This document shows positions 1 through 53,103 of a stretch of DNA of 64,000 nt, in pieces. Within the stretch, counting starts at the first letter, position 1; each line of letters opens with the position of its first letter. The position numbers were made by a program, and so were the translations under genes. The notes under the pieces were generated by a model that was not told the DNA's origin, searched no databases, and saw nothing but the letters and a program-made list of their open reading frames with translations. Origin of the DNA: Chiloscyllium plagiosum (taxonomy: Eukaryota). The DNA lies in contig NC_057719.1 of NCBI RefSeq assembly GCF_004010195.1, positions 16,853,177 through 16,917,176 on the forward strand. The letters are read 5' to 3'.

Positions 1-165
1 CTTGCCCATGTCCACAGAACCGCCTGTCCGTCCCTCTAACTAGAGAGTCCCCTATAACTAGCGCTCTCCTCCTCTCCCCCTTTCCCTTCTGAGTCTCAGA
101 GCCACAGACCCCTTCACTGCAGCTTACACCTGCAACGCTGTCCCCCCCAACAGTTTCCAAAGCTG
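1..165 (-). mobile_element. 5'-truncated end of a CR1 LINE (ORF1 esterase region), continuing left of the window
   Basis: The reverse complement of 1-60 encodes VIGDSLVRGTDRRFCGHG (GDSL esterase motif), homologous to the ORF1 segment at 33388-33445. Confidence 0.75.
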
Positions 166-6224: not shown

Positions 6225-6297
6225 GCAGAAGAACTTTTTCTGTGGATCCCCAGAAAAATGCTCATGACTGTTGAATCTGCCAAAAATTCTGTGTTGG
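6225..6297 (+). CDS. SETD3: SETD3 internal coding exon (73 nt; AEELFLWIPRKMLMTVESAKNSVL-G), equivalent to human exon 5
   Basis: Acceptor ctttgcgtttttag| and donor |gtaagt. The translation is nearly identical to recalled vertebrate SETD3 (AEELFLWVPRKLLMTVESAKNSVLG). It ends in phase 1, matching the next exon. It is too short to appear in the ORF track. Confidence 0.95.
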
Positions 6298-6554
6298 GTA
6301 AGTAATGAATTCCCATGTAAATATAAATTCTTTGAAGTTGTCTGCAATCGTTATGGGTTCACTCTCAAATATTTAATATTTTCTATAAAGTTTAGAATCC
6401 ATGGACTTTAGTTTACATTGAGCTTTTTATTTTGGTCGTGGAGTGGAAAAAGATAAATGTGTTCATCAAGTTTAAACACCACATTCAATGTTGCAATCCA
6501 TACTGCCACAAAGATTAACAACAGATTTTACAGTCTGTGTTGCTGCAAGATAGA

Positions 6555-10149: not shown

Positions 10150-11450
10150 GTAGTTGCTGGTAGTATGTGGATTCAAGACAGCTAAAGAGTCTCATTAGAC
10201 TTAAATTGAGTAAGAGAATTCATGTGCCATTATTCAGGAGAGTGCACATCCCAGAAAGTCCACCTAAATCTGGTTTGGAACAGTTAAGTAGCTTAACAAC
10301 ATGCAGGTCAGAACCAATCAAAATAAATGTTTGGTTAAATGGTTACCCAGTTCTAATGGCAGTAGGTACTAAATAAAAACTGAAAGAACCATGGATGCTA
10401 TAAATTAGAAACAAAAACAGAAGTTGCTGGAAAAACTCAGCTGGTCTGGCAGCATTTGGGAACAGAAAGTAAACGTAATGTTTTGGGCCTGGTGACCCTT
10501 TCTCAGAACTGAAGAACTTGACCTGAAATGTTAACTTTGATTTCTCTTCACAAATGTTGCCAGACCAGCTGAGCTTTGCCAAGCAACTTCTGTTTTGTTT
10601 TTAATGGCAGTAGATACTGATGTGGCCTTTTCAGTGATTGCAGCTCCAGTTTTTAACAGAATCCACTCTGGCCTTCAATGCTTAAGTTTGGGCAAGACCT
10701 TGGCTAGACTGAGAGCTTATACACAGACCACTTTACAGATTAAGGATGCAACTTCGTTTCTTGTCTGTTATGAGAAGCAGCTGGTTCAGTTACCACTGAT
10801 TGTAGCAAAAGGCTCAGGCCCAAGCTTGATGGGGTGAAATTGGTTGGGAATAATTCACCAGATTGGCTTAATATTTTTCGATTAGAAAATGGCTGCCTGA
10901 TTGAAGTTCTAATTAAATACCTGGAAGTTTATCATGAAAGTCTAGGGACAGTCAAAGGAGTCAAGGCATCTTGCATAGTGATCAAGAAGCAATTCCATGA
11001 TTCTGCTGGCCCACCCAGGACTATTAATCCTATGGCAAAAGTAGAGGCAGAAACCAGAAAGCTGGAAAGCAAAGAATCTTTAAACCAGTCCAGTTTACAG
11101 ATTGGGTAGCAATCCTTAGCAGACAATTATGGGAAGCAAGAGTGATTGTCCCAAGCAAAGATCACCACCAGTTATTGGCTGAACTCCACCAGCATCATCC
11201 AGTAGTTTCCAAAATGGAAATGCTGGCAAGAAGTTATTTCCAGGATTGGATACAGACATAGTTGCAATGGTGGGCCAGTGCCCAGAGTTCCATCAAGGAC
11301 AAAGATTACAGCCAATAGCTTCTCCACATTTGTGGGAATGGCCAGGTAAACCCTGGACTCAGTCACACGTCGACTGTGCAATTCTTTCATCGGATCAGTG
11401 TTCTTTAAACATTCTAGCCACCCGCTCAAAGTGGCTGGATGTGCATAGAA
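10150..11450 (+). mobile_element. Degenerate, internally deleted Gypsy/Ty3 internal region (protease, start of RT region, integrase N-part)
   Basis: PIKINVWLNGYPVLMAVDTD.AFSVI (aspartic protease DTG-like), LGTVKG, KVEAE, then DTDIVAMVGQC and LWEWPGKPW..SHVD (integrase zinc finger and core start). Confidence 0.7.
10371..10601. mobile_element. Fold-back PLE-derived insertion (family B) with decayed hammerhead remnants
   Basis: Inverted arms aaacaaaaacagaagttgct.../...agcaacttctgttttgtttt. TSD taatggcagtag(g/a)tact at 10354-10370 and 10602-10618. Homologous to the 3' end of the PLE at 46085-46190. Confidence 0.75.
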
Positions 11451-14939: not shown

Positions 14940-15196
14940 GTCCAGTTTATGCCCAGGACCGGATTCTACAAGCCATGGGAAATATTACCCTTGCGTTTCA
15001 CCTGCTTTGTGAACGTTTGAATCCCAATTCCTTCTGGTTACCTTACATTAAGACATTACCTATGGAGTATCATACTCCTTTGTATTTTGAAGAGGAAGAA
15101 GTACACTACCTCCAGTCAACACAAGCCATCCACGATGTTTTCAGTCAGTATAAAAACACCGCTCGCCAGTACGCTTACTTCTATAAACTTATCCAG
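14940..15196 (+). CDS. SETD3: SETD3 internal coding exon (257 nt; GPVYAQDRILQAMGNITLAFHLLCER...QYAYFYKLIQ), SET-domain region, equivalent to human exon 6
   Basis: Lies within ORF 14927..15319, bounded by aaaatctag| and |gtaggt. The peptide matches recalled SETD3 (QDRILQAMGN, NSFW.PYI.TLP, LQSTQAIHDVFSQYKNTARQYAYFYK). It joins in frame with 6225-6297. Confidence 0.96.
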
Positions 15197-16424
15197 GTAG
15201 GTTTACAGAGGTCCCTATTTCCAAGAAATCAACCAGCATTGTTTTCAGTTTCTTTAAAACTTTATTATCAAATTCAGTTTGGCCTTGAACACATTTTTAA
15301 TATTGTAGATAACTGTTGACTGTATCACAGCATGATGCGCATTCTAAAATGTTTTGTTTAAGACAATGTATTCTAATACCTGTCTGGTTTAATGTTTGTT
15401 TCTGCTGCTAAAGTAGGACTGTTCCTTCAGGATGTTAAAATTTAATTCATGTAAAATACAATTAGAAGTCAATTAGACGTCAGCTGCTTGGGTGAGGAAA
15501 GGAATAAATTGTAGATATATTTAATTAATCTGTTTGGGCATCTTATGACAAACCTTTGGAGCAGTTCGGACTTGAACACAGGCCTTTTGGCCCAGCTCTT
15601 CCTTTATTTTTTGCAGTGGGATGTGAAATTGAGGTTCCAGAATGATTAAATAACCAGCGTTAGATCATCTACGTGTTATGTGAATATTTTAATCTTTTAA
15701 AATCAATCTGAAAGAAAAATCCCATACCATTCACATCTTTTTTTAAAAATTTATCCTCAGCGGTTGGTGACGTGTTTATTGCTCGTCCTTTGTTGCCTAG
15801 AAAAGGTCTTGGCGATTTGTCTCTGAACTACTACAGTACTTGTGATAATGGCGTTTCTTCACTGATGTTACATAAGAAATACCAGGTCATTGTTTGTGCC
15901 AAAGCTATAAATCTCTGCCTTGGGCTAACTTACCTAGTTCAACTGCATTTCTTTTCAGATTGTTTGTTGCAGTTTTAATAATTCAGTGGAACTACACAGA
16001 AATTTTAACTGAGACTACAGTGCCCAATTTCTAATCTTTTTTTGTTACAGCACAGGTTTAAGAACTCCTATTACTGGTTGAGCAATTTTGCTGTTACCAG
16101 ATTGGAGAAACTTTTCCATCTTTTAACTTTTATGTTGGTTAGAATCAGTAATTTAATCACTCATCTCCAGAGTGAATTAGAGTTAACACTCAAAAGAATA
16201 AAGATCTTGTGTTTTGCCAATTTATGGCCATTTCTATTTGGAAGGTGTTTTTTTAAAAAGGTTATTTTAAAATGCTTTTTTAAGCAGTATGTATTCGTGC
16301 AAATTTTTCTGAATTAAGGATTACTGGCTAGCAGATTCTTGTTCTCAAGTAAATCAAACAATAAACAATTCAGTATAAAAGACATCAAAGGAAACAATAC
16401 AATGAGGGTATTAAGGAGGGATCG

Positions 16425-27970: not shown

Positions 27971-28666
27971 TGATTCTATGTGCTGTATCACGCCCATTTA
28001 AAAAAAAATTGTGATATAGTATTTCTAATTGAACAATGCTTTGTTCTTAGTTACTGTTTTATTTCTGTGAATCTATTGAGGCATTTGTTTAGCTTTGTAA
28101 GAATACATTGTCTTGGGTGGCAACATAAAAGTGGCAAAACTAGGTCAGACCTCTGTTTGAATTCCACTGGCCTTTCCTTTTACATGGAACAAGATGGGTA
28201 TAATGTGAAACTGTCTGCCCATTTACTACTGTTCTCCTTGTAAAAAGCCACCCAAAGAGAATTTGCATCCCATTGTGTATTTTAAAAACTCTTTAAGTTT
28301 AGCAATTTGTCACCTTTGTCCAACCTTTTCCCTAGAATATAAATTTTTTTTTTGCTCAAGGAAGCTGAGCTAATTTCTTGATTTAATTCAATATAGCACT
28401 CCATAAATAAGACAAAAATAACATGTCTCTTAAATCAACAGTTTATATTACTTGTAAATTCCTTGCATTAATGCCTTGCATTAATTCTAATAATCTCAAG
28501 CTGATTCCAGTATTGAGAAAGTATCATTCTAAAGTGGTAACACATTTGGTCTACTGTTTGTAGTTGTCATTTTCCCAATGAACATTGTAACTTTATTCCT
28601 CGCCCTGCACTCTGAATTAATATCGAGCTGCTGATCTACCTTTGAAATTGGCTACCTCTAAAACTC

Positions 28667-28694
28667 CTGAAGAAGGGCTTATGCCCGAAACGTC
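28667..28694 (+). ncRNA. Minimal hammerhead ribozyme core (helix I mostly lost)
   Basis: CTGAAGA-A-GGGC-TTAT-GCCC-GAAAC-GTC. Confidence 0.6.
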
Positions 28695-28751
28695 GATTCT
28701 CCTGTTCCCTGGATGCTGCCTGACCTGCTGCGCTTTTCCAGCAACACATTT
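28667..28751 (+). mobile_element. 85-bp PLE terminal-repeat insertion (family A) that starts at a hammerhead core
   Basis: Perfect 15-bp TSD ctacctctaaaactc (28652-28666 and 28752-28766). Homologous to 52059-52147. Confidence 0.85.
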
Positions 28752-29853: not shown

Positions 29854-30055
29854 GTCGAGGGTGTGGTGCTAGAAAAGCACAGCAGGTCAGGCAGCATCTG
29901 AGGAGCAGGAAAATCGATGTTTCGTCCGCATTCCTAATGAAGGGCTTTTGTCCAAAACATCGATTTTCCTGTTCCTTGGATGCTGCCTGACTTGCTGTGC
30001 TTTTCCAGCGCCACATTCTTAACACTGGTCTCCAGCATCCGCAATCCTCACTGTC
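29854..30055. mobile_element. Fold-back PLE-derived insertion (family A) with a decayed hammerhead
   Basis: An inverted copy followed by a sense copy of the PLE terminal repeat. Perfect 18-bp TSD tcccagtggcatttcaga (29836-29853 and 30056-30073). Confidence 0.85.
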
Positions 30056-31104
30056 TCCCAGTGGCATTTCAGATCTGACTAGTAAAACTGGAGCATGAGA
30101 GTGAGTTTTGTCTTTCCCATTGTCTGTACCTCACTGGAAAGGAAGTGCCTCTCCTCAGTACTGTAACTCATTTTGATAACCTATCTAACTTGGGAACTCC
30201 ACTTTCTCCTCTGCTGTTATGACTCCAGCCTCAGAAAACTTCACCATTATATATCTATGGTTCTCTGTATGTGAGATTGATGTTTTGTCTGTGGATTCAC
30301 ATTCACCAAACTCATTTTATCATTGAACATATACAGCAGCAGAGAAATGGTCCTCCAATCCATTGGAATCCTCATTTGAATTGATTTGTTAACAGTCTTT
30401 TATTTTCACGTTTTAAGTTATGGTACTGATCTGTGTTTTTTAAATGAGACTTGGAAGAAGTCAATACAAAAGCAAATAACCAGTTCTACTCTTAAAGGTC
30501 ATTAGACCCATCATTACTTTGATAGGAAATGGGAGCAAAATCTTTAAATTTACTTCAAGTTATAAATCATGGGGTCAGATTTTCAAATGTTTTCCATTTT
30601 GAATAGCAGTTGCTAAAGATTTTATATAATTTTACCACCATTCGGGGATTGTATAGCTCTTGTATTGTTCCCATCTGTTTGAATTTTATTGTGCTCTTTT
30701 ATATTTGTAGCAATAGCCTGATGATGATTGTTTTATTATCAAGCCCTAGTTAAGTTCAAATGTTGCATCTCAAAGGAAGAAATATGGAACAAAATACCTA
30801 GCTGAAAGAGTTTGGGTAGCATTTGACTTATAGGCAAAATGCATTACAAAATAAAATTATGTAGACTTTATGCACCTAAGTAGTCCATTCTATTTAACTG
30901 CTCAATTCTAGCATTCATGTGTCACGTGACCCACCTCCACCCAGCTCATGTTACCTTATTAGTATCATTGACTTATCCTGTTCTTTTCTTTTGTGTTTAT
31001 GCTCACATGCATCTGTATTATTGACCTCAACTTCTTGCAGCATTCTTGCTGCTTTTTCAGTATGAAGGAGCTTTTCCTGTTGGACTATAACTTGGGGTTG
31101 GCTG

Positions 31105-31208
31105 ATTCCTGATGAAGGGCTTATGCCTGAAATGTCGATTCTCCTGTTCCTTGGATGCTGCCTGACCTGCTGTGCTTTACCAGCAACACATTTTCAGCAC
31201 TGATTTTC
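31105..31208 (+). mobile_element. PLE terminal-repeat fragment with a hammerhead variant (31109-31136)
   Basis: CTGATGA-A-GGGC-TTAT-GCCT-GAAA-TGTC followed by the family A tail. Confidence 0.75.
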
Positions 31209-34200
31209 AAACTTGTCCACACCGGCATCTCCACATGTATAAATTCAAGACCAGCTTGAATATGTTAGCTACTCTATGGAGTAGCTCTGGGGATAAGGAA
31301 AATAAGCTGTAACTCATGAGAGTTTCCTGAAATGTAGTTTATTGAACATTCAGTGAACAGTTTGAAACTATTCTTCATCATTTTCCTCTTATTTCATTTC
31401 CCCTGAAGTTTCAACAACACACAGAGAAGCCACATGCTCAGAACTCATTTGGGCTTTGTCACATGCAGTATTGTACAAACCTGCAATAACTGGAGCAGTT
31501 TGAAGAATGGATATTGGAGCTGCTTTTATTAACCTTACACTCCCTTTAGTTCCATTGGTTGTCCAACATGTTAGTGAGTCGTGTGATGAAATCTCCAAGA
31601 CTATGCTTCAACCAGAATTGGCAATATTCAAAATTTTGTCATTACTTCAGAACTGTTTGGGATGTCCTGAGAGTGGAAAAAAGCTTACATAAATATCTTA
31701 TTTTTTTTTTTCAATTCATCTTTGGGATATGAATGTCACTGGCAAGACCAACATTTATTACTAATCTTTAATTGCTATTGAGAAGGTATTTTGCTTCAGC
31801 AGAGTTGTGTTTAGATTATTCACAGCCTCGATGTGCTTCTTTAAAGACAGCAAGGTCTTATTGCAGTAAATAGGAAAGTTCCAAATTCAATTAAAGGGTA
31901 ATTGAATTTTTTAAGTGCTTGTAGATTACCGGCTGTTCGCCAAAGTCAGAAGAACCAGCTGTAAATGACTGTCTTTCTCTCAAATACTTCTGACACTTAG
32001 AAGTGTGAAAGTGAGAATTGTTTTCTTTATTCACATAACAGTGTTTACTTTACAATATATTACTGCTGTCCATGCATCTTTCCATCCTAGCAGTGTTGTT
32101 GATTTTTCCTTTAAAGTAGAAGCAGAATACAGAGTACAGAATAGCCACATTACCAGGACTTAGTATCTCTGCACAGTGCTTCGCACAAAATGAGTCCAAT
32201 CTCTGTTAGAATGTGTTTTTTTTATACTTTTTAACCTCAAGATTTAAACACTTTGCTATTTTCAGGTTTTTAATCTACCCAAACATGTAGTTACCAAGTC
32301 TGTTTGCAAGGATTCTGGGTAATCCAAGATGAAAGATGGGGAAAAAATTATGGTTGTAAGAGCTGCTCCTTTTTTGAGGTATTTTAGATGTTGGAGCTGA
32401 TTTCTTTGAATTCTAGGAGCGGTAATTACTGCTTTATAAACTGTTGCGTTGTTTTGGAATTTTGGGGAAAGAATGATTAAAACAACAATTTTAAAAAGAA
32501 GGAAGCTAGACAAAGGCAGAGACCACATGGTCAGTGTATCAAACGAGAAAGAAACCTACACTGCTGTCTGACACAGCAGTGAATCTGCACAGCTACTGCC
32601 TTTGCTGTTGGAGTTCAAGCATCTCTGGACATCAGAGCACATCTAAGAAAAATCAAACAACAGCAAAATTCACAGCTGCCCTTGGAGGGCCGCGTTGGGG
32701 GGAGCTCACAGCACAGGAGCAGCTAAGTGCATAATTTTTAAGTGAAATCTTGCTGTTCATTTTTTTTTGTAAATCAATAATAGTGAGTAGAGTGGATTCT
32801 TTTTTTTTGATTATTTGTTTTATTGAGATCTATCTCTTAATTAAATTTTTAAAATATAAAACATAGGTGCTAAGTTAGCCTGGAACAGTGTTTTTTAGAG
32901 CAGTAGGGCTGTGCTATTTTCTGGGTCTTTGGATTGTTAAGGTGAAAAGGTGGCCTTTAGTAGAGTGATGTGCTCTTCTTGTTGGTTGTGGGAGGCTAGG
33001 AAGAGTTTCCATGTTACTGATGATTATGTATGCAGTAAGTGTGTTTGGTTGTTAATCCTATCCGATCCTATGGATCGGTTGGAGCAGCAGTTAGAGGCAA
33101 TGAGAAATTTACAGGAGCTTAGGGATATGATCGATGGCAGTTATAGGAAGAGAGAAAAACCACAGATACAATCCGGTAGATGGTTACCTCCAGGAAGGAT
33201 AGAAAAAGGAGGCAGATGTTGCAGGAGTCACCTGTGGCTATCCCCATCTCAAAACAAGTAAGCTGTTTTGGAAAATGTAGGGCGTGATGGAATCGCAGGG
33301 GAATGTAGCATGAACAGCCAAGTTTCTGGTACCAAGACTGGCTCTAATGTAACAAGAGGTAAGTCAGGTTCCAATCAATCGATTATGATAGGGGAATGTC
33401 TAGTCAGAAGCACAGACAGAGGTTTCTGCGGCCAACAGCAAGAAATCAGAATGGTGTGTTGCCTCCCTGGTTCCAGGATTAGGGATATCTCGGACTGTGT
33501 ACAGAATATTTTTAAAGGAGAGGGGGGCCAGCAGGAGGTCAGTGTATACATTGAAACTAATGACATAGAAAGGGAAAAAGATGAGATTCTGAAGTGAAAA
33601 TGTAGGAACTTTGGCAAAGATTTAAAAAGGAGGTCCTTGAGGGTTGTAATATCTGGATACTCCCCGTGCTACGAGCTAGTGAGGTTCGGAATAGGAGGAT
33701 AGAACAGTTGAATGCGTGGCTAAGGAGCTGGTGCAGGGCAGAGGCGTTCATACTTTTGGATCATTGAAATTTCTTCTGGGGTAGAAGTGACCTGAACAAG
33801 AAGGACGGATTGCACCTGAATAGGAAGGGGACTAATAGACTGGGAGGGAGACTTGCTACAGCTGCTCAGAAGGATTTTAACTAGTAAGGTGGGAGGATGG
33901 AACCCAGGAAGGTAATGAGGAAAGAGAACAGTCTGAGACTGGTACAGTAGGAAAAGGAGCAAGTCAAACAGTGAAGGCACGCAGGAACAAAACAGAGATC
34001 AAGGTTGGACTGATAAATGAAGTTTAACTTATTTCAATGCAAGAAGCCTAACTAGAAAGGTAAATGAATTCTGGGCATGTTTAGAAACTTGGGACTGGGA
34101 TATCTTAACAATTACAGAGACATGCCTGAGGGATGGACGGAACTGGCAGCTTAATGTTCTGGGATACAAATGCTATAGGACAGATAGAAAGGGAGACGAG

Positions 34201-34649: not shown

Positions 34650-34871
34650 ATAGTGATGGAAATGGATAGACCGGATCTAAAAGTTGATGTTCTAAATTGG
34701 AGGAAGGCCAATTTTGATGGTATTTCTTTTGTTGGAATATCCTCTCCTGCTGAAACCTATCACATTTCCAACGCCCCTCCTCCAAGTCCCTCCATAGTGA
34801 TGGAAATGGATAGACCGGATCTAAAAGTTGATGTTCTAAATTGGAGGAAGGCCAATTTTGATGGTATTTCT
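34650..34871 (+). repeat. Perfect 78-bp direct duplication (34650-34727 and 34794-34871) around a 66-bp PLE-derived filler
   Basis: Direct comparison; also visible as a repeated peptide in ORF 34638..34955. Confidence 0.9.
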
Positions 34872-35219
34872 CTAGAACTTTCAAAAATTGATTGGGGGGG
34901 CAGACGTTTGCAGATAAAGGGACAGTTGGAAAGTGGGAAGCCTTCAAAAAAATGAGTTAATGAAAGTCCAGAGACCGTATATTCCTATTAGGGTGAAATG
35001 CAAGACTGGTAAGTGTAGGGAATGTTGGATGACTAGAGAAATTGATGTTTTAGTCAACAAAAAAAAGGAAACCAATGTCAGGTTATGGACCACAGAGATC
35101 AAGTGAATCCTAAGAGTATAAAGGCAGTAGGTGTATGCTTAGGAGGGAAATCAGGAGGGCAGCTGAAACTTTATTGCTGGAACAGCACAGCAGGTCAGGC
35201 AGCATCTAGGGAACAGAAG

Positions 35220-35255
35220 ATTCGACGTTTCGGGCACATGCCCTTCTTCAGGAAT
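35220..35255 (-). ncRNA. Minimal type-I hammerhead ribozyme motif, intact
   Basis: Reverse complement reads ATTC-CTGAAGA-A-GGGC-ATGT-GCCC-GAAAC-GTC-GAAT. Confidence 0.72.
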
Positions 35256-35352
35256 GAGCAGAGAGTGTTCAGCAGGAGAAGATAAAAGGTAGGGAGGAGG
35301 GACTTGGAGGAGGGGCGTTGGAATATCCTCTCCTGCTGAACACTCTCTGCTC

Positions 35353-35388
35353 ATTCCTGAAGAAGGGCATGTGCCCAAAACGTCGAAT
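35353..35388 (+). ncRNA. Hammerhead motif with GAAA changed to AAAA (likely inactive)
   Basis: ATTC-CTGAAGA-A-GGGC-ATGT-GCCC-AAAAC-GTC-GAAT. Confidence 0.55.
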
Positions 35389-36469
35389 CTTCTGTTCCCT
35401 AGATGCTGCCTGACCTGCTGTGCTGTTCCAGCAATAAAGTTTCAGCTTTGATCTCCAGCGTCTGCAGACCTCACTTTCTCCCCAAATCAGGAGGGCAAAA
35501 AAGGCATGAGATAGCTTTGGCAAATAAGGTTAGGGAGAATTCAAAGGAATTTTATAAATACATTAAGGACAAAAGGGTAACTAGGGAGAGAATAGTGCCC
35601 CTCCAACATCAGCAAGGCAGCCTATGTCTGGAACCACAGGAGATGGGGGAGATATTAAAAGAGTATTTTGCATCGGTGTTTACTGTGGAGAAGGACATGG
35701 AAAATTTAGAATGTGGGGAAATAGATGGTGACATCTTGAAAAATGTCTGTATTACAGGGGAGGATGTTTTATGATGCATAAAGGTAGATAAATCCCCAGG
35801 ACTTAATCAGGCATACCCTGGAACTCTGTGAGAAGTTAGAGATATGATAGCTGCATCCTTCACATGGAATACAGGGAGAACTAGCCATTTGGATACAGAA
35901 CCAGCACAAAGGTAGACGACAGAGGGTGGTGGTGAAGAGTTGCTTTTCAAACTGGAAGCCTGTGACCAGTGGTGTGCCACAAGGATTGGTGTTGGGTCCA
36001 CTACTTTTCATCATTTTATGTAAATGATTTAGATATGAACATAGCAGATATAGTTAGTAAGTTTGCAGATGACATCAAAATTAGAGGTGTAGTGGACAGC
36101 GAAGAAGGTTACCTCAGAGTACAATGGGATCTTGATCAGATGGGCCAATGGGCTGAGGAGTGGCATATGGAATTTAATTTAAATAAATGTAGGGTGTGGC
36201 ATTTTAGAAAGGAAAATCAGGGCAGGGTTTATATACTCAATGGTAAGGTCCTAGGGAGTGTTGCTGAACAAAGAGATCTTGGAGTGCAAGTTCATCATTC
36301 CTTAAAAGTGGAGTCCCAGGTAGATAGGATAGTGAAGAAGGCATTTGGTATGCTTTCCTTTATTGGTCAGTACATTGAGTATAGGAGTTGGGAGGTCATG
36401 TTGTGGATGGTTATGCCATTTTTGGAATATTGTGTGCAAGCCTGATTTCTTTCCTATAGGAAGGATATG

Positions 36470-38469: not shown

Positions 38470-38650
38470 AAATAGATGCTGGAAATGCACAATAGGATAG
38501 GCAGCATCTGTGGAGGGAGAAAAGTTCCATGTTTTAGGTCCTTGACCTTTATCAGGACCAATTGTCTTGAGGCATTAACTCTCTTTCTCATTTCCCAGAT
38601 GCAGACTTATTTGCTGAGTATTTCCAGCACTTACTGTTTGTTATTTCATA
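38470..38650. mobile_element. Old fold-back PLE-derived element with a hammerhead remnant
   Basis: Arms tgctggaaat.../...atttccagca. The minus strand reads CTGATAA-AGGTC-AAG-GACCT-AAAAC. Confidence 0.55.
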
Positions 38651-38908: not shown

Positions 38909-39408
38909 NNNNNNNNNNNNNNNNNNNNNNNNNNNNNNNNNNNNNNNNNNNNNNNNNNNNNNNNNNNNNNNNNNNNNNNNNNNNNNNNNNNNNNNNNNNN
39001 NNNNNNNNNNNNNNNNNNNNNNNNNNNNNNNNNNNNNNNNNNNNNNNNNNNNNNNNNNNNNNNNNNNNNNNNNNNNNNNNNNNNNNNNNNNNNNNNNNNN
39101 NNNNNNNNNNNNNNNNNNNNNNNNNNNNNNNNNNNNNNNNNNNNNNNNNNNNNNNNNNNNNNNNNNNNNNNNNNNNNNNNNNNNNNNNNNNNNNNNNNNN
39201 NNNNNNNNNNNNNNNNNNNNNNNNNNNNNNNNNNNNNNNNNNNNNNNNNNNNNNNNNNNNNNNNNNNNNNNNNNNNNNNNNNNNNNNNNNNNNNNNNNNN
39301 NNNNNNNNNNNNNNNNNNNNNNNNNNNNNNNNNNNNNNNNNNNNNNNNNNNNNNNNNNNNNNNNNNNNNNNNNNNNNNNNNNNNNNNNNNNNNNNNNNNN
39401 NNNNNNNN
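38909..39408. other. Assembly gap (500 N)
   Basis: Run of exactly 500 N; the round number suggests a placeholder of unknown true size. Confidence 0.99.
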
Positions 39409-45719: not shown

Positions 45720-45930
45720 TACAAGCAAAATAGCACAGATGCTGGAAGTCTGAAACAAACATAGAAAATGCTGGAGCAACTCAGTACATCTAGCAGCACC
45801 TGTAGAAAAAGAAACAGAGTTAACTCTTCTGAAGAAGAGAAATACTCGACTTCACACTGTTAACTCTGTTTTCTTTCCACAGATGCTGCCAAACCTGGTG
45901 GGTTTCTCCAGCATTTTGTGTTTGTTTCAT
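45720..45930. mobile_element. Fold-back PLE-derived element (family B)
   Basis: Inverted arms tgaaacaaacatagaaaatgctggag.../...ctccagcattttgtgtttgtttca, centred on a ctgaagaa remnant. Confidence 0.7.
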
Positions 45931-46084: not shown

Positions 46085-47305
46085 AAACAGAAACACACAT
46101 TGCTGGAAAACACAGCAGGTCTGACAGCATCTGTAGAGAGAAAGCAGAGTTAACATTTCGGGTCCAGTGACCCTTCTTCGGAACTAATTGTAGCTTGGAA
46201 AATGTTGGTATATGTGCTGGAAATGGGGTGGAGGGAGTGGGAGGAGTGTACAAGAGGTGGAGGTGGAGCCGAGAGAGAGCATCAGTGGGAGAGACAAAGG
46301 AATGCATAATTATCAATCTGGAGAATCAATGCAATGGTTTGCTTGTGGTAGCAGACCATGGGATGGTAAGGTCTGATGCGTGAGATTGGGTTAAAGACAT
46401 GGGAGAAGCTGCTCAGGCCCTTAAGTTATTGAACTCAATATTAAGTTCTGAAGGCTGCAGGGTCCCCAAGCAGAAAATGAGATGCTGTTCTTCCAGATTG
46501 TGCTGAATTTTGCTGGTGCACTGCAACAAGCCTGAGACCAAGATGTTGACCAAGGAACACAGTGGTGTGTTGAAGTAGCAAGCAATAGGAAGATCAGGAT
46601 TATTTTTGCTGACAAAGCATAGAGTTTCTGCAAAGTGATCATCCATTCTGTTGTTTGTCTCCCCAGTATTGAGCAAACCACATTGTGCGCGGTGAATACA
46701 ATAAACTAGATTGAGTGAAGTGGAGGTAAATTATTGCTTTACCCAGAAGGTTTGCTTGGGACCTTGAATAATGAGGAAGGAGGAAGTAAAATGGCAGGTG
46801 TTACACCTTCTGTGATTGCATGGGAAGGTACCATGAGGGAGTAAGAAGGTTTTGGGAGTGGAGGGGTGGACCAAGGTGTCCCGGAGGAAACAGTCTCTGC
46901 GGAAAGCTGACAAGGGAGAGGAAGGGAATGTGCGTTAGGTGGTGGCATCCTGCTGAAAGTGTCAGAAATGGCAGCTAATGGTTCTTTGGATTTGGAAATG
47001 GAGTGTTAAGTTTGGACCAGGGGGACTCTATCGCTGTTGTTGGAGGGAAGAGTGGGGTGAGGTCTGAAGTATGGGAGATGGGTTGGAAACAGCAGAGTGC
47101 CTTGTCAACTGCAGTGCTGGGGAATTCTCGGTTGAGGAAGAATGTAGATACTTCGGAGGCCCCGTTATAGAAGCTGGTATCATCAGAATAGATGTAATGG
47201 AGGCGGAGGAGTTGGGAGAATGGAATAGAATCTTTACAACAAGCAGGGGTGAGGATATATATAGTCAAGGTAACGGTGAGAGTTGATGGGTTTGCAATGG
47301 GTAAA
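46085..47305 (-). mobile_element. Degenerate Penelope-like element (probably Neptune-type): RT C-terminus, Cys linker, GIY-YIG endonuclease, 3' repeat with hammerhead
   Basis: KDSIPFSQLLRL..IYSD, FLNREFP, TFPCNHRRCNTC, GET..RM.DHFAE and LEEQHLIFCLGTLQPSELNIEF. Confidence 0.85.
46148..46185 (-). ncRNA. Hammerhead motif, family B, with core substitutions
   Basis: Reverse complement reads AGTT-CCGAAGA-A-GGGTC-ACTG-GACCC-GAAAT-GTT-AACT. Confidence 0.55.
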
Positions 47306-48005
47306 TGTTCTGTTACAGGAAGCCCAATTTGAAATAGGATTCCTCACCACATATGACATTTGACTTTAGTTTTGTTCAGGTTATTAATTAGTAGGAGAAG
47401 CCTGTTCACATCAAAACATGAAAATTTACTTGAGGCGTCACTAATATATGTAGGGAAAGCCAAATGACGTGGTCTGGAACACAAACCAGAGAATTTAATG
47501 CACACACAGCAAGGATTTAATGTTTCTTTTTAAAGTAGATGGTGAAACTATTTCACAGTGAACCAGTTTCCGTAGTCTCCTGCCCAACAATCTTGTTTTC
47601 TTAGTTTTTACTCCTGCTGCTTTTGCATTGAATTTTGTTGCTATGTCTATAAGTATTTAAAATATCCTTTTACAAATGTTATTAGCCAAATAGCTGTACT
47701 TAGTGATGATGCACATCAAATGTCTAAAGGGGTTGAGATTTTCCATTGGGACAATGATGTTGAAGAATTTTTAGAATAAATTAACAGCCAAAGCAAATTA
47801 TTAACTGATTAGGTAGATAAATCTAGCTTTGAAAAACGATTAAATGAACGTAACCCAGCAGTTGTTTCTACCTGTGGAAAACTTGTAAGTCTCTGCCTAC
47901 AGGAAATGCCTGGAGCTATTGCCTTTCCACTGAAGAATATCAGGTGCAATATCTAAAACTTTCAAAAATATCTTTCTTAGTCATATTTTCTCTGGTACGT
48001 CACTG

Positions 48006-48120
48006 GAAAAGCACAGCAGGCCAGGCAGCATCCGAGGGCTTATGCCCGAAATGTCGATTTTCCAGCACCACACTCTCGATTCTGATCTCCAGCATCATCC
48101 AGTGCAGTCCTCACTTTCTC
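48006..48120. mobile_element. Short fold-back PLE-derived insertion (family A) with a partial hammerhead
   Basis: 16-bp TSD with one mismatch, ctctggta(c/g)gtcactg (47990-48005 and 48121-48136). Contains gggcttatgcccgaaatgtc. Confidence 0.75.
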
Positions 48121-49439
48121 CTCTGGTAGGTCACTGCTTGTTTCATTTAGAACAGGAGAAGAGAGAGAAAATGTTCTGAAAGTAAAAGCAAGTGTATTGT
48201 TTGTATGGAGGATTATTTGCTTTGATTTTAACATTGTGGCTTTAAGTTTGTGATGACATATACATAAGAATGCCCAGGTGCTCCCAGTATTGCAGTAAAA
48301 TTTTATACTGCTTCCTATGAATTATATTTTCCCCTGTTAAAATTAATTCACTTTGATGCACAGACAAATATTAAATTACATTTCGGATGTATTAGACAAA
48401 GACCCTGTTATTATTTGGAAAGACTGCTTCACAAGGCTATTTATTTTAATTGACTCTGTCAGGAAAACTTTTAACCTCTTTACTTATTACATATTTACAA
48501 ATTCATTCTGGTTGGCTCTAGGCCCAAAAAGATCAACAAATTCATTTTTCTTTAATTGAGGAGTAATAAAAGGAATGCATATTTTCTTGAAGATTAAGAC
48601 AAGTCATGACTTGTACAGATGTCTGAAATGATCAGAAATAGTATTCAAGAAAATGTCATTTGTCCGTTGGTTTGATTGGTGAAGCTAATTAACTGAAAAT
48701 ATCAGAACTATAATTTATTAAAAGGCGTGTTAGGTTTGTTTTATTAAGTAACAACTTATAAATATTAAGCATTTGTTGTACTGTCGTGTGAACATTGTCT
48801 TCATAGATATGTATCTGTATTGGGAGTTAGAAACAACATTTATTTATGTCAGTTTATTTAGGCATATAATAATGTTTTACAAATTTTGGAGGAGCAAGTA
48901 ACTCTAGAGTTTAATACATAATAATTAGCTAAGATTGATGAGGAGTCTTCTGCTTTTATACAAGAAAAGAATAGTTTATCGCAACACCAATAAGGCCTCG
49001 GGTTGTGGCAACCAGTTTGACCTCAGACTGAAGGTAATCTCAGAATTACTGAGGGCCAGGTATTGGTTGTGTTCTAATCATGCAGTGAGTGAGAAGTGCA
49101 AAATAATGATTTGGCCATGCAAGTTTCTCCCCTCTGTCTCTCTAAGGAAGTGTCCATACTGTGCTTGCCGGTGGAAGTGTTAAGAATTTTCATTTGCCAT
49201 CTGGGAAATTTTGACTCCAATTCATGCTGTATTATTTGGGAATTGCACATCAATAGTTGGAGAGCAAGATTAGGGTTGATGCCTCAGAGGGTACACACAT
49301 GGCCAAGTAACTACCTACTATGCTGCAGATTGCTATGATTCAAGTACGCTGACTTTGTTTGGGTTTCTCAAATATTAATCTATTCTCCTTGTCATTTTTA
49401 AATTAGTTTTATCTTCATTTTATCCTCTCTGTTTCAGTC

Positions 49440-49945
49440 AGTTTCCTCTGACTCTTTTCTAATTCTGTTCATCGGTCATTTTTTTCTCCTTTTTTTAACT
49501 TTTTTTCACTTTTTTTTCTTGCTCTCTCTCCCCTTCTCTTTCTCTCTTACGCTTCTGTTCCACCACCCTCTCCTTCTCTCTTTATTAATGGTCTCACCCC
49601 ACTTTATTTCTCTCGTGTTCTCGCTCATTCTCTCTTGCTCGTTTTCTCTCTCTCGCTCATTTTATCTCTCATTCATTGTCTCTTGCTCGTTCTCTCTCAT
49701 GCTCGTCTTCTCTCTTTTGCTCATTCCTTTCTCTCGCTCATTCTCTCTTGTTCGTTCTCCCGCTTGCTCTCACTGTTTTTTGCCCTTGCTCTCCCTCTTT
49801 CTTGCTCTCTCTCTCTCTGTTTCATTCTCTCTCTCACTCTCTCTCACTCTCTCTAAATCTCTCTCTCTCTGTTTCATTCTCTCTTTCACTCACTCACTCA
49901 CACTCACACTCACACTCTCCACCCTCACCTTCTCCTCTCTCTAGA
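49440..49945 (+). repeat. CT-rich low-complexity / degenerate (CT)n microsatellite
   Basis: About 500 bp dominated by C/T, with (ct)n, ctca and ctcg units. Confidence 0.9.
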
Positions 49946-51734
49946 GTCCTGCATCAACTCTTTAATGAAAGCTTTCAGCATTAAGTCACAGCCCAGATCA
50001 AGGACTGGGAAAAAGAGTCCCGCTACGGGGAGCAGTTGGCCACTCCTGTACCAACAACAACTCTATTGAATAGTCATGTCACCAGTGAGGCAGTAGGTGC
50101 TGCTTGTGAAACAGTCACTTGAGTCCAAGGTCCTTAACCAGAGCTGGCATGGGTCATCCTTATCTTTCGATGAAGGCATCATAAGTGACACTATGCTAGA
50201 TACTATTCTCGACTGAAACTTAATTAAGTTATACACTGCATTTTAGACTTGTCTATGGGTATGCTGCAGCTCATCTGAGTATGTGCCTCATGAGAAGTGC
50301 CTTTTAATTGCTATTCTTGGTTTGTTTTGAACACCCCCAAAGTAGACTCCTGTATTAATACTCATTGGGGTGTTAGCAAGTGCTGATATGAATGTTCAAA
50401 AACAATCAGACACCGTTATTTTGTTGAGGACTGAATAGCACACTGAATTATAATAAAGGAATAATCAAGAAGGAGAAACCCATTCTCTTGCTAAGGGCAT
50501 GGAATCCTGTGCTTCACCTCACTTAGGGTCTTGCCTTGGGTGTAAAGTTATGATGTGCAAAGATAAATAATCAGTAATTTTGTTTTTAAACTGTATACGT
50601 GGTGTACAAGGCAAGCTATTTTACTGAATGTATTTTATTTTATGAAATAGTTGTACCATTTCACCCTCTGGAAGTTTGGAACAACTTGGTTTCTTTCTAA
50701 TACCATTGCAGGAATACACCACGGAGTGCATAAAAACTGTTGTAGTTATATTGATGTTTATCGTTGACATTCTTTTATCAGATGGTTTATTGCAACTAGT
50801 TTCTTGATTTATACAAGGAAAAATAGACAGCATAGAAACTAAAAGATTGGGTATGATTGTATAAGGAGATACACCAGCAATTGAGAAGACCTCTTGAGTG
50901 TCAACTTGAAAGTGGCACAGGTGAAACCAGCATTCATCCCTCTACATCCCCAACTGCCAACAAACCAGAGTGAAGCATCTGTCAATCAGCAAAACCGAAA
51001 ATGGAGTAACCACCACCCAAGTAATCAATTTACACCAAAACATTCTTGACAATGAAATCCTTATTGTGCGCTATTTTCCCCGTTTTGCTTATTGTCCATT
51101 TTTCATTGCCTTGAGAAGGTAGTGCTAAACTGCCTTCTTGAAATGCTGCAGTGCAAAGATCTGCAGGTTAGGTGGATTGGCCAGGATAAATGTGGAATTA
51201 AGAGGATATGGTAGGGGCTAGGTCCGGCTAAGATGTTCTTTGGATGGTCGGTGCAGTGTTGATGGGCCAAATGGCCTCTTTCTGCATTGTAAACCTACAA
51301 TGCTGATGAGAAGGGAGTAACTAGTGACAGTGAAGGAACGATAATATAGTTACAAGTCAGGATGGTGTGTGACTTGGATGGAAACTTGCAGGTGATGATT
51401 TGCTCATGCATTTGCTACCCTTGTTCTAAGAGTTAGAGGCACCTTTTGGAAGGTGCTGTTGAAGGCAAGTTCGCATGTCCCTGCAGTGCCTTTTATAAAT
51501 GATACACAATGCTACTTCTATGCACAGGTGGTGAATGGAGTACTATTCAAGAGGATTACATTGTCCTGAACGGTGTTAAGCTTTTTGAGTGTTGTTCGAG
51601 TTGCACCCATCTAGGCAGGATTATCGTTACATTCCTTATGTCCTTTGGTGGTTGACTGCCTTTGAGGTGAGTTGCTCAATCTCTGATCTGCTTTTGCAGC
51701 CAAGTATTTCTATTGCTAGGCCAGTTCAATTTCT

Positions 51735-52147
51735 CATCCACCGCCAAACCACAACAACGGTACGGTCGGAGGAGGAGCGTCTTATCTTCCGACTGGGAAC
51801 CCTCCAACCACAGGGGATGAACTTGGACTTCACCAGTTTCTTCATCCCCCCTCCCCCCACCTTGTCTCAGCCGAATCCCTCCAGCCCGGCACCGCCTTCC
51901 TGACCTGCAGTCTTCTTCTTGACCTCTCCGCCTCCATCCTACTCCGACCTATCACCCTCACCTTGACCTCTTTCCACCTATCACATTTCCAACGTCCCTC
52001 CTCCAAGTCCCTCCTCCCTACCTTTTATCTTCTCCTGCTGAACACTCTCTGCTCATTCCTGAAGAAGGGCCTGTGCCCGAAACGTCGAATCTTCTGTTCC
52101 CTGGATGCTGCCTGACCTGCTGTGCTGTTCCAGCAATAAAGTTTCAA
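51735..52147 (+). mobile_element. Young 5'-truncated Penelope-like element (GIY-YIG C-terminus plus 3' repeat)
   Basis: EEERLIFRLGTLQPQGMNLDF peptide. Perfect 13-bp TSD cagttcaatttct (51722-51734 and 52148-52160). AATAAA near the end, and CpGs are retained. Confidence 0.9.
52055..52090 (+). ncRNA. Minimal type-I hammerhead ribozyme motif, intact, sense to SETD3
   Basis: ATTC-CTGAAGA-A-GGGC-CTGT-GCCC-GAAAC-GTC-GAAT; predicted cleavage after 52086. Confidence 0.75.
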
Positions 52148-53103
52148 CAGTTCAATTTCTGGTTAATACTAATTTCCAAGATGTTGGTAGGAAATGATTT
52201 AACAATAGTAATGAGACACGGTTAGATCCTCTCCTTGGGAATTGCAATGCTTGACACTTAGGTGGCATGAATGCTCCTGTTAGCTATCAACACAAAGCTT
52301 CATGTTGTCCAAGTCTTAATGCAAGTGGACATGGACTGTTTTAGTATCTGAGGCAGCAGAAATGCTTCTGAATACTGTGCAATCATCAATGAATATCCCC
52401 ACTCTAACCTTGTGTCAGAGGGAAGGTCATTGGCGAAGCTAGCTAAAAATGTTGGGCTTAGGACACTACCCTAAAAAAACTCCAATCATTCTCTGTTGTG
52501 TTAGGTTTGGCATCAATTATTGTAGAGTCTTTCCCCCTGATTTCCTGTGATGTCAATTTTGCTAGGATTCCTGACTGCTGTACCAGGTAAAATGCTGCTT
52601 TGCTGGGAAGAATAGTCATAACCACCTCTTGAATTCAGCTCTTTTGTCCATGTTTGAGCTGTGACTGCAATGAAGCCAGGAGCTGAGTGACCCTAGTGGT
52701 ATCCAAACTCAGCATCTGTGAACAGGGAAGTAGAGGAAATACAGGAAGTACCCAATTTGCATTCAGCAAGCTTTGGCAAGTAGCGCATAAGTGATAGTGA
52801 CTCAATAATCTGTCTTAGTGATCTGAGTTAGCCTGCTCCTCTTCAAGGTAATGTCATGAAATTATTTATATCCAGCTGACATGGCAACAAGAATTTGCAA
52901 TATGTTTTATCACTGTGCTTCAAACCCAGTTGGTTATCTTCTGAGGTATGGGTATGTAGAAAGAAGTGACCAGAAAGTTACTCAAACATCAAATAAATTA
53001 TTGTCTCAGTTAATTGGGTAATTCTGGATTCTGTTCAAAGTATTAGATTGGACATGGATGATGTAACCTCAGTTTTCCTCAAGAAAAACTGATGCTCAGT
53101 ATT

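Follow-up and report, generated by a model that had tools for sequence, protein, structure and literature searches.

The stretch of DNA considered here, a 64,000-nucleotide window of the genome of the shark Chiloscyllium plagiosum, carries on its forward strand a short motif (52055..52090) that an earlier note, made from the letters alone, had described as a minimal hammerhead ribozyme of a Penelope-like element (PLE) in an intron of SETD3. The locus raises three questions: whether the motif is a ribozyme, whether it does anything to its host gene, and what a ribozyme is for in the element that brought it there. Taken overall, there is good reason to think that it is the hammerhead of a truncated PLE, that it lies inert in SETD3, and that the element’s RNA starts at helix I and is copied mostly uncut.

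Letter for letter, the motif is as first described. Its CUGAAGA box occupies 52059-65 and is followed by an extra A (52066), a 4-bp helix II (52067-70/52075-78), GAAAC (52079-83), and a GUC triplet (52084-86). Helix I, as read off the sequence, has 4 bp (52055-58/52087-90), helix III is the palindrome ACGU, and the cut is predicted at 52086/52087. The isolated motif folds as drawn (−7.1 kcal/mol), while the longer piece 52040-52110 prefers an alternative fold (−9.7 kcal/mol). A strict descriptor finds two motifs in the 64-kb window, 52059 on the plus strand and 35251 on the minus strand, and none in 100 order-1 shuffles or in the reversed window; Rfam returned no hammerhead match in the window up to an E-value of 10. 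On the strength of letters, descriptor, and folding, the motif is a genuine minimal hammerhead of a PLE terminal repeat, predicted to be a self-cutting RNA.

Ribozymes of this kind (min-HHRs) occur in the pseudo-LTRs of metazoan PLEs, including Xena, Poseidon, and Neptune of fish, and are described as cutting weakly as dimers (Cervera & De la Peña 2014, PMC4209133). The focal motif resembles them in its type-I layout, in both boxes (CUGANGA and GAAA) with U16.1 and H17, in the extra base between positions 9 and 10.1, in the G10.1-C11.1 pair, and in a palindromic 15.2-16.2 without a loop III (PMC4209133). Copies in both cases are mostly dispersed singles from truncated elements, whereas helix II measures 4 bp in the shark motif and 7–8 bp in Schistosoma (PMC4209133). 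A literature search of main texts found no report of sharks with Penelope hammerheads; supplements, which may list sharks, lay outside its scope.

The motif sits within a 413-bp, 5′-truncated insertion of a Neptune-type PLE, family F1a (51736..52148, plus strand), recognized by sequence comparison and bounded by 12-bp target-site duplications (51723..51734 and 52149..52160). From left to right it comprises the end of a GIY-YIG ORF, the pseudo-LTR, the hammerhead, and 62 nt to the first 3′-end site. DNA-like contigs contain both junctions in run X15 and the left junction in X17. Where the earlier note placed a GIY-YIG ORF upstream of the motif, an ORF end is present, but only its last ~56 codons remain (51736..51903, plus strand: GIY-YIG end, proline-rich tail, stop), as identified by homology to the ORF of copy L040. 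Pfam gave no match on five window fragments, including this ORF end. Copy L040, 97% identical to the focal insertion, does carry GIY-YIG (PF01541, E 1e-4, above the cut-off), preceded by the Cys linker CNRRRCNTC (CxxxxCxxC). A CX2-5CxxC linker between RT and EN is described for Neptune PLEs and for Nematis too (PMC8557442), and by the GIY-YIG and Cys linker of L040 the focal element would be Neptune-type, with the linker shared by Nematis.

More generally, F1 copies combine 5′ truncation, an inverted pseudo-LTR, a 30–40-bp tail, and target duplication, which is the insertion architecture of EN+ PLEs. The Penelope elements of Adineta vaga likewise show head-to-head inverted repeats, a tail at one end, and target duplications (Arkhipova et al. 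2013, PMC3846280). No intact full-length element was found among 14 regions near close motif pairs and 20 RT-like loci. Non-LTR retrozymes also have type-I hammerheads, are related to PLE pseudo-LTRs, and have been reported in one chondrichthyan (PMC7229834; bioRxiv 10.64898/2026.07.22.740005). As described there, they form head-to-tail tandem arrays with mostly canonical ribozymes, in contrast to the dispersed single or inverted shark copies with PLE coding remnants; the window copies are single or head-to-head, unlike retrozyme units.

The further motifs listed in the earlier note all prove to be PLE remnants, but most have broken cores. A short F1b copy with a 15-bp target duplication and an intact core (28665..28750, plus strand) begins at about the inferred RNA start; helix I of its motif, at 28667, has only 2 bp, and the 5′ strand of that helix is partly target duplication. 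Another short F1b copy, beginning G-ATTC (31104..31200, plus strand), has two CpG changes in its ribozyme at 31109 and is hosted by an F3 remnant (31070-31240). An F1a head-to-head pair occupies both strands at 35161..35483. Its antisense arm, listed earlier as 35220 on the minus strand, exists and is intact, but its CUGA sits at 35251; the sense arm (35357, plus strand) has G12>A and a tail. In RNA the pair would form a long hairpin, predicted at −250 kcal/mol for 35161-35447. Together with 51987-52146, which lies 17 kb away and is complementary at 98%, this hairpin could form dsRNA in SETD3 pre-mRNA, a possible editing substrate.

Decayed head-to-head F1 pairs are found at 29860..30059, where the sense arm begins at helix I and the ribozyme at 29933 has lost both G5 and G12, and at 48003..48120, where the motif at 48038 is without its CUGA box. 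An old Neptune-type F2 element (46085..47343, minus strand) retains RT-thumb and GIY-YIG remnants, a pseudo-LTR, and a mutated antisense hammerhead core at ~46148-46185 (U4>C). F2 is also represented by decayed head-to-head pairs on both strands at 10404..10605, within the SETD3 intron that comes before the one holding the focal motif, and at 45751..45929, and a strongly decayed head-to-head remnant at 38477..38605 is F2-like. Elsewhere in the window, two perfect 78-bp direct repeats in a LINE remnant enclose 39 bp of the focal PLE family (34650-34871), a 500-N assembly gap falls inside a LINE remnant (38909-39408), and a long CT-rich low-complexity tract spans 49400-49950.

Protein homology places SETD3 on the plus strand (E 1e-48), with sharks as the closest homologues. 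Coding exons lie at 6225..6299 and ~14940..15199, and the intron that follows, ~52 kb long, spans 15200 to ~67360, beyond the window end. All copies from 28667 to 52059 are within this single intron, and the earlier assignment to a SETD3 intron is thus borne out by the exons at 14940-15199 and beyond the window. A further suggestion, that sense copies might dimerize within one SETD3 pre-mRNA, cut the intron, and thereby affect the host gene, appears extremely improbable. It has in its favor that 52059 is intact and sense to SETD3, that 28667 keeps its core in the same intron, and that weak cutting in vitro is reported for such motifs as dimers (PMC4209133). Yet only 52059 passes the strict descriptor as a sense motif; its nearest sense partner with an intact core, 28667, is 23 kb away with the 2-bp helix I already noted, the ACGU palindrome contributes a duplex of only −3.1 kcal/mol, and the predicted dimer fold of the focal motif is not the hammerhead. 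An antisense copy 17 kb upstream (35164-35323, 98% match) has a predicted pairing energy of −337 kcal/mol with the 52055 copy and would sequester it, and copies decay at the CpG rate, as described below.

RNA reads provide a weak further test. In run X20, a poly(A) single-cell library of which about 2 in 100 reads were sampled, the family is hit by 1,287 reads on both strands, and those crossing the cut site (330 sense, 268 antisense) show no pile of ends there, in a fragmented poly(A) library that is poor for 5′-OH ends. No X20 reads fell on the unique flanks of this SETD3 intron, and the reads are family-wide; run X21 gave no reads. Since exact F1 cores occur about once per 55 kb of the genome, the SETD3 locus is an ordinary site. 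Amniote hammerheads of RECK and DTNB are likewise found in host introns, but each of those is a canonical ribozyme at one locus, with conservation between species, whereas the shark motif belongs to a young repeat with a minimal helix III and an unselected G12 (PMC6155905). Retrozymes are reported to be under-represented in Xenopus introns (bioRxiv 10.64898/2026.07.22.740005), and by analogy mild selection against such intronic insertions is possible. The focal motif is likely an inert passenger in SETD3, and very probably a passenger of a known kind.

What the element does with its ribozyme is better asked of the family as a whole. In the 3.56-Gb genome, the F1 core pattern has 65,182 exact matches and its reversed control none, compared with ~4,000 copies in coelacanth and ~9,000 in Xenopus (PMC4209133). 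A 32-nt word just downstream of the F1 ribozyme occurs in 185,911 exact copies, and the older F2 motif in only 124. Four families were found, three Neptune-type (F1, F2, F3) and one Poseidon-type (F4); F3 and F4 we take to be Neptune-like and Poseidon-like, respectively, by their EN motifs. The earlier proposal of two PLE lineages with hammerheads therefore stands as a minimum; the GUC triplet ascribed to them holds for the first lineage, but the second (F2) has GUU. In some F4a loci (L136, L140, L147, L162), helix I apparently extends past an internal loop, nearer to the canonical type-I form. A tandem array of ~47-bp units derived from sequence just 3′ of the cut site is also present (G000:C16:42817619-42818026).

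Constraint on the fold was examined in eight family or subfamily majorities of 3–169 rows each, with helix pairs counted by structure in a script; a MAFFT alignment of eight copies misplaced two F4 rows. Both catalytic boxes are invariant in the eight majorities, all catalytic residues and the U16.1/H17 rule hold in every one, and helix III is self-complementary (ACGU or AGCU) and loopless throughout, as the earlier note had said of PLE terminal repeats with minimal type-I hammerheads and in agreement with PMC4209133. The extra base between 9 and 10.1 is present, as in min-HHRs, and the G10.1-C11.1 pair is found in seven of eight, being G.U in F4b (3 rows). Helix II varies in length and sequence, the first pair of helix I is C-G, U-A, or A-U with both strands changing, and N7, loop II, and N17 are unconstrained. 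Covariation of the stems alongside a variable loop II, claimed earlier among copies, is accordingly seen between families but not between copies within one family.

Within F1 the picture is one of decay. In 115 F1 copies picked without regard to the motif, G12 is changed in 20, compared with 12–24 at each of five other CpG positions; the core, helix II, and ACGUC are all kept in 46, and helix I has four Watson-Crick pairs in 11. Since G12 is lost at the ordinary CpG rate, selection would have acted on the transposing parents. The earlier note’s selection on RNA structure thus applies to active parent elements but not to inserted copies, which, from their sequences, show no sign of being kept active. 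Divergence at non-CpG core positions is 2.9% versus 5.5% downstream (p 0.002), where the downstream set mixes subfamilies; the lower core value fits selection on the parent element, confounded by the subfamily differences.

The two commonest subfamilies, F1b and F1c, have a U.U mismatch in helix I. Along with the GUU triplet of F2 and the report of no RNA ends at the cut site in Anolis (PMC11167929), matched by the shark reads, this would suit a fold that is retained because it binds protein or serves as a promoter element, and that catalyzes little or nothing in vivo. Such a role in place of cutting seems distinctly unlikely, given that the catalytic residues, U16.1/H17, and a self-complementary helix III are retained in all eight majorities, and that the Anolis motif cuts in the presence of the element’s protein and shows C3/G8 rescue (PMC11167929).

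Evidence on how the ribozyme-bearing RNA is made and copied comes from the ends of the copies. For the 5′ ends, 220 copies were anchored on a word that lies 17 nt past the cut, at loci picked by that word in contig C1 and 20 arbitrary 10-kb regions and excluding those picked by motif; dropping nine with N left 211. Junctions pile up at −28 to −34 (56 of 211); on this scale helix I opens with an A at −32. The others are distributed as 8 at −35 to −60, 74 further upstream, 45 within the ribozyme, 13 at 0 to +2, and 15 below. Reads and contigs also show loose ends at 52054-55. At the focal locus a TATA-like word (52023..52029, plus strand), the inferred promoter part, precedes the inferred start by ~31 nt, and TCATTC (52053..52058, plus strand), which we take to resemble the initiator consensus, would place the capped start at A 52055, the first base of helix I. 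In F2 and F3 the 5′ ends step at the matching structural place, 29–33 nt after TATA-like words, with TATAAA at −29 to −32, and long F1 copies match the focal offset; the F2 and F3 steps and TATA offsets come from a crude long/short split that includes motif-selected loci. The pseudo-LTR of Adineta vaga likewise has a predicted TATA and initiator (PMC3846280), whereas the promoter of Poseidon_Ac is placed loosely in the pseudo-LTR (PMC11167929).

A pile of 5′ ends at helix I could instead reflect an RT stop or a repair preference, for example at the edge of a pyrimidine tract or by microhomology with the opposite arm. Inverted pairs account for 25 of the 56 junctions at −28 to −34, and in D. 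virilis the Penelope start lies ahead of an intron, ~120 nt 5′ of helix I (PMC2377424, PMC4209133). We consider this explanation unlikely: the remaining 31 junctions are not inverted, and the same structural step recurs in F1, F2, and F3 at the same distance from TATA-like words.

The base preceding the start argues further for a true RNA end at helix I. Genome-wide, among starts with a non-templated base one position further out, the helix I A is preceded by G in 1833 cases, A in 876, and T in 505, which puts G 4.6–6.9 fold over background. In F3 the counts are 460 G versus 194 A/T, ~6 fold by the F1 background. In two copies (L235 and L236), the G sits between the target duplication and the element, that is, untemplated in duplication-flanked copies. 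Some Gs do come from the target or the other arm, as the repair explanation would have it: in L212 and L214-L217 the G is a target base beside microhomology, and of 30 G loci inspected, 19 are fused to a second arm of the element; judged by eye, that arm supplies the G in ~4 of the 30 (~4 of 12 in F3). A sample-level test was not significant (20/65, p 0.15, templated C/T included). At a −8 control G is also common, but 30 of 30 inspected loci there are element-joined, and this control is no test of non-specific G addition; at a +6 control, G precedes 12 of 100 starts, by eye, among the matches listed.

In full-length L1 insertions, an extra G is described as the mark of a copied cap (PMC11702581). 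An extra G on the sense strand points to a capped sense template. That the element RNA is capped and starts at the first base of helix I is fairly likely, and reverse transcription likely uses this capped sense RNA in its uncut form. The Adineta vaga study favored an antisense template while leaving the matter undecided; the shark G points to a capped sense one (PMC3846280). A literature search for a PLE start site or an untemplated G found none, with most subscription journals and supplements outside its scope.

It has been proposed that dimeric cleavage produces unit-length, possibly circular PLE RNA as the main insertion template (PMC4209133), and the fold is kept in all families examined. 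A cut linear template predicts starts at +1, but there are 152 starts at the precise cut position, compared with 182 at −8 and 143 at +6, and most of the 152 are second arms of inverted pairs. Among simple insertions, those at the cut site are slightly commoner (5 of 30, versus 0 of 30 at −8 and 2 of 30 at +6, or 2 of 60 together), which leaves room for cleavage in a few percent of templates. A circle has neither an end at −32 nor a cap, yet ends and the extra G pile up there. In vitro, cleavage-dead mutants of the Anolis Poseidon element inserted equally well (PMC11167929). The shark copy ends thus argue against cut or circular RNA as the main template, which we hold to be improbable in that role, and for the uncut one. 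For Poseidon_Ac of Anolis carolinensis, uncut RNA is likewise the RT substrate in vitro, and cutting needs the element’s protein (Frangieh et al. 2024, PMC11167929).

At the other end, copies stop in two clusters, +61..65 and +97..101 after the cut. Poseidon_Ac similarly has two adjacent 3′-end sites ~36 nt apart (the tail) and, like F1, a hammerhead at the junction of pseudo-LTR and ORF, whereas the shark protein is Neptune-type with a Cys linker (PMC11167929). Four of 239 tail-bearing copies continue into shared sequence, and one (L165) runs on into a long ORF starting ~39 nt past the tail. The main ORF would start ~139 nt after the cut site, in contrast to that of Poseidon_Ac, which starts inside the ribozyme (PMC11167929). 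The ATG at 52105..52107 (plus strand; L165 and long copies) was rejected as the main start, its frame stopping after 42 codons in long copies. It opens a short upstream ORF just 3′ of the hammerhead that overlaps the main ATG out of frame (L165, tail end 648; L207; L316; L330).

Several signal-like words lie in the same region. AATAAA (52135..52140, plus strand), a possible poly(A) signal fixed in F1a (38 of 39 rows), lies 49 nt after the cut, and a sense copy could present a cryptic intronic poly(A) site; F3 alternates between AATAAA and ATTAAA 10–12 nt after the cut, and F1b, F1c, and F2 are without a poly(A)-like word. In F2 (46100-46150 on the minus strand; L101-L130), an order like that of a splice acceptor comes after the cut site: UAAC, similar to a branch point, then a pyrimidine tract and a CAG that directly abuts an ATG. 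Within a host intron, a sense F2 copy could be used as a cryptic acceptor. In most F1 subfamilies GG stands in place of the AG of this stretch. A lariat branch point at 52055 was rejected because a pyrimidine tract and AG are absent at the normal distance.

These observations suggest a life cycle along the following lines. The active element would be transcribed from a TATA-like/initiator promoter within the pseudo-LTR, and the capped RNA would begin on the first base of helix I. The element’s RT would then prime at two internal sites, ~95 or 131 nt from the cap, and copy toward the 5′ end of a mostly uncut template. When primed in the 5′ repeat, it would run off at the cap and add a C that templates the G, yielding the hammerhead-only copies of 90–135 bp with which the genome is littered; longer copies, such as 51736-52148, would result when it primed in a 3′ repeat reached by read-through. 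Internal priming 95–131 nt from the cap would thus explain hundreds of thousands of copies that are little more than a ribozyme. Inverted arms might arise by fold-back of cDNA ends on short complements or by copying onto both strands. For the ribozyme to cut, a dimer would be required, probably with help from the element’s protein, and its two motifs would most plausibly come from the 5′ repeat and the 3′ repeat of a single element transcript. Cleavage would then come late or lie off the pathway, and would take away the first 32 nt with their cap.

From this follows a broader and more tentative reading, somewhat more apt to be wrong than right: that the vertebrate PLE hammerhead is cap-proximal, that the template is capped, sense, and uncut, and that cleavage is a self-decapping off-switch and not a step of insertion. 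A start at helix I in at least three shark families, as inferred from their sequences, is part of this reading.

The kind of ribozyme found at this locus is already known; the lead on start site and template taken from the copy ends is new. A hammerhead is expected in PLEs, and the one examined here seems not to matter for SETD3. This one genome preserves over 185,000 element ends, and their junction statistics can be used to test open PLE questions, including the template strand, left open in PMC3846280, and the purpose of the hammerhead, described as unclear in PMC8557442. What the end counts suggest is a template in the sense orientation that carries a cap, begins at the ribozyme, and is copied uncut.
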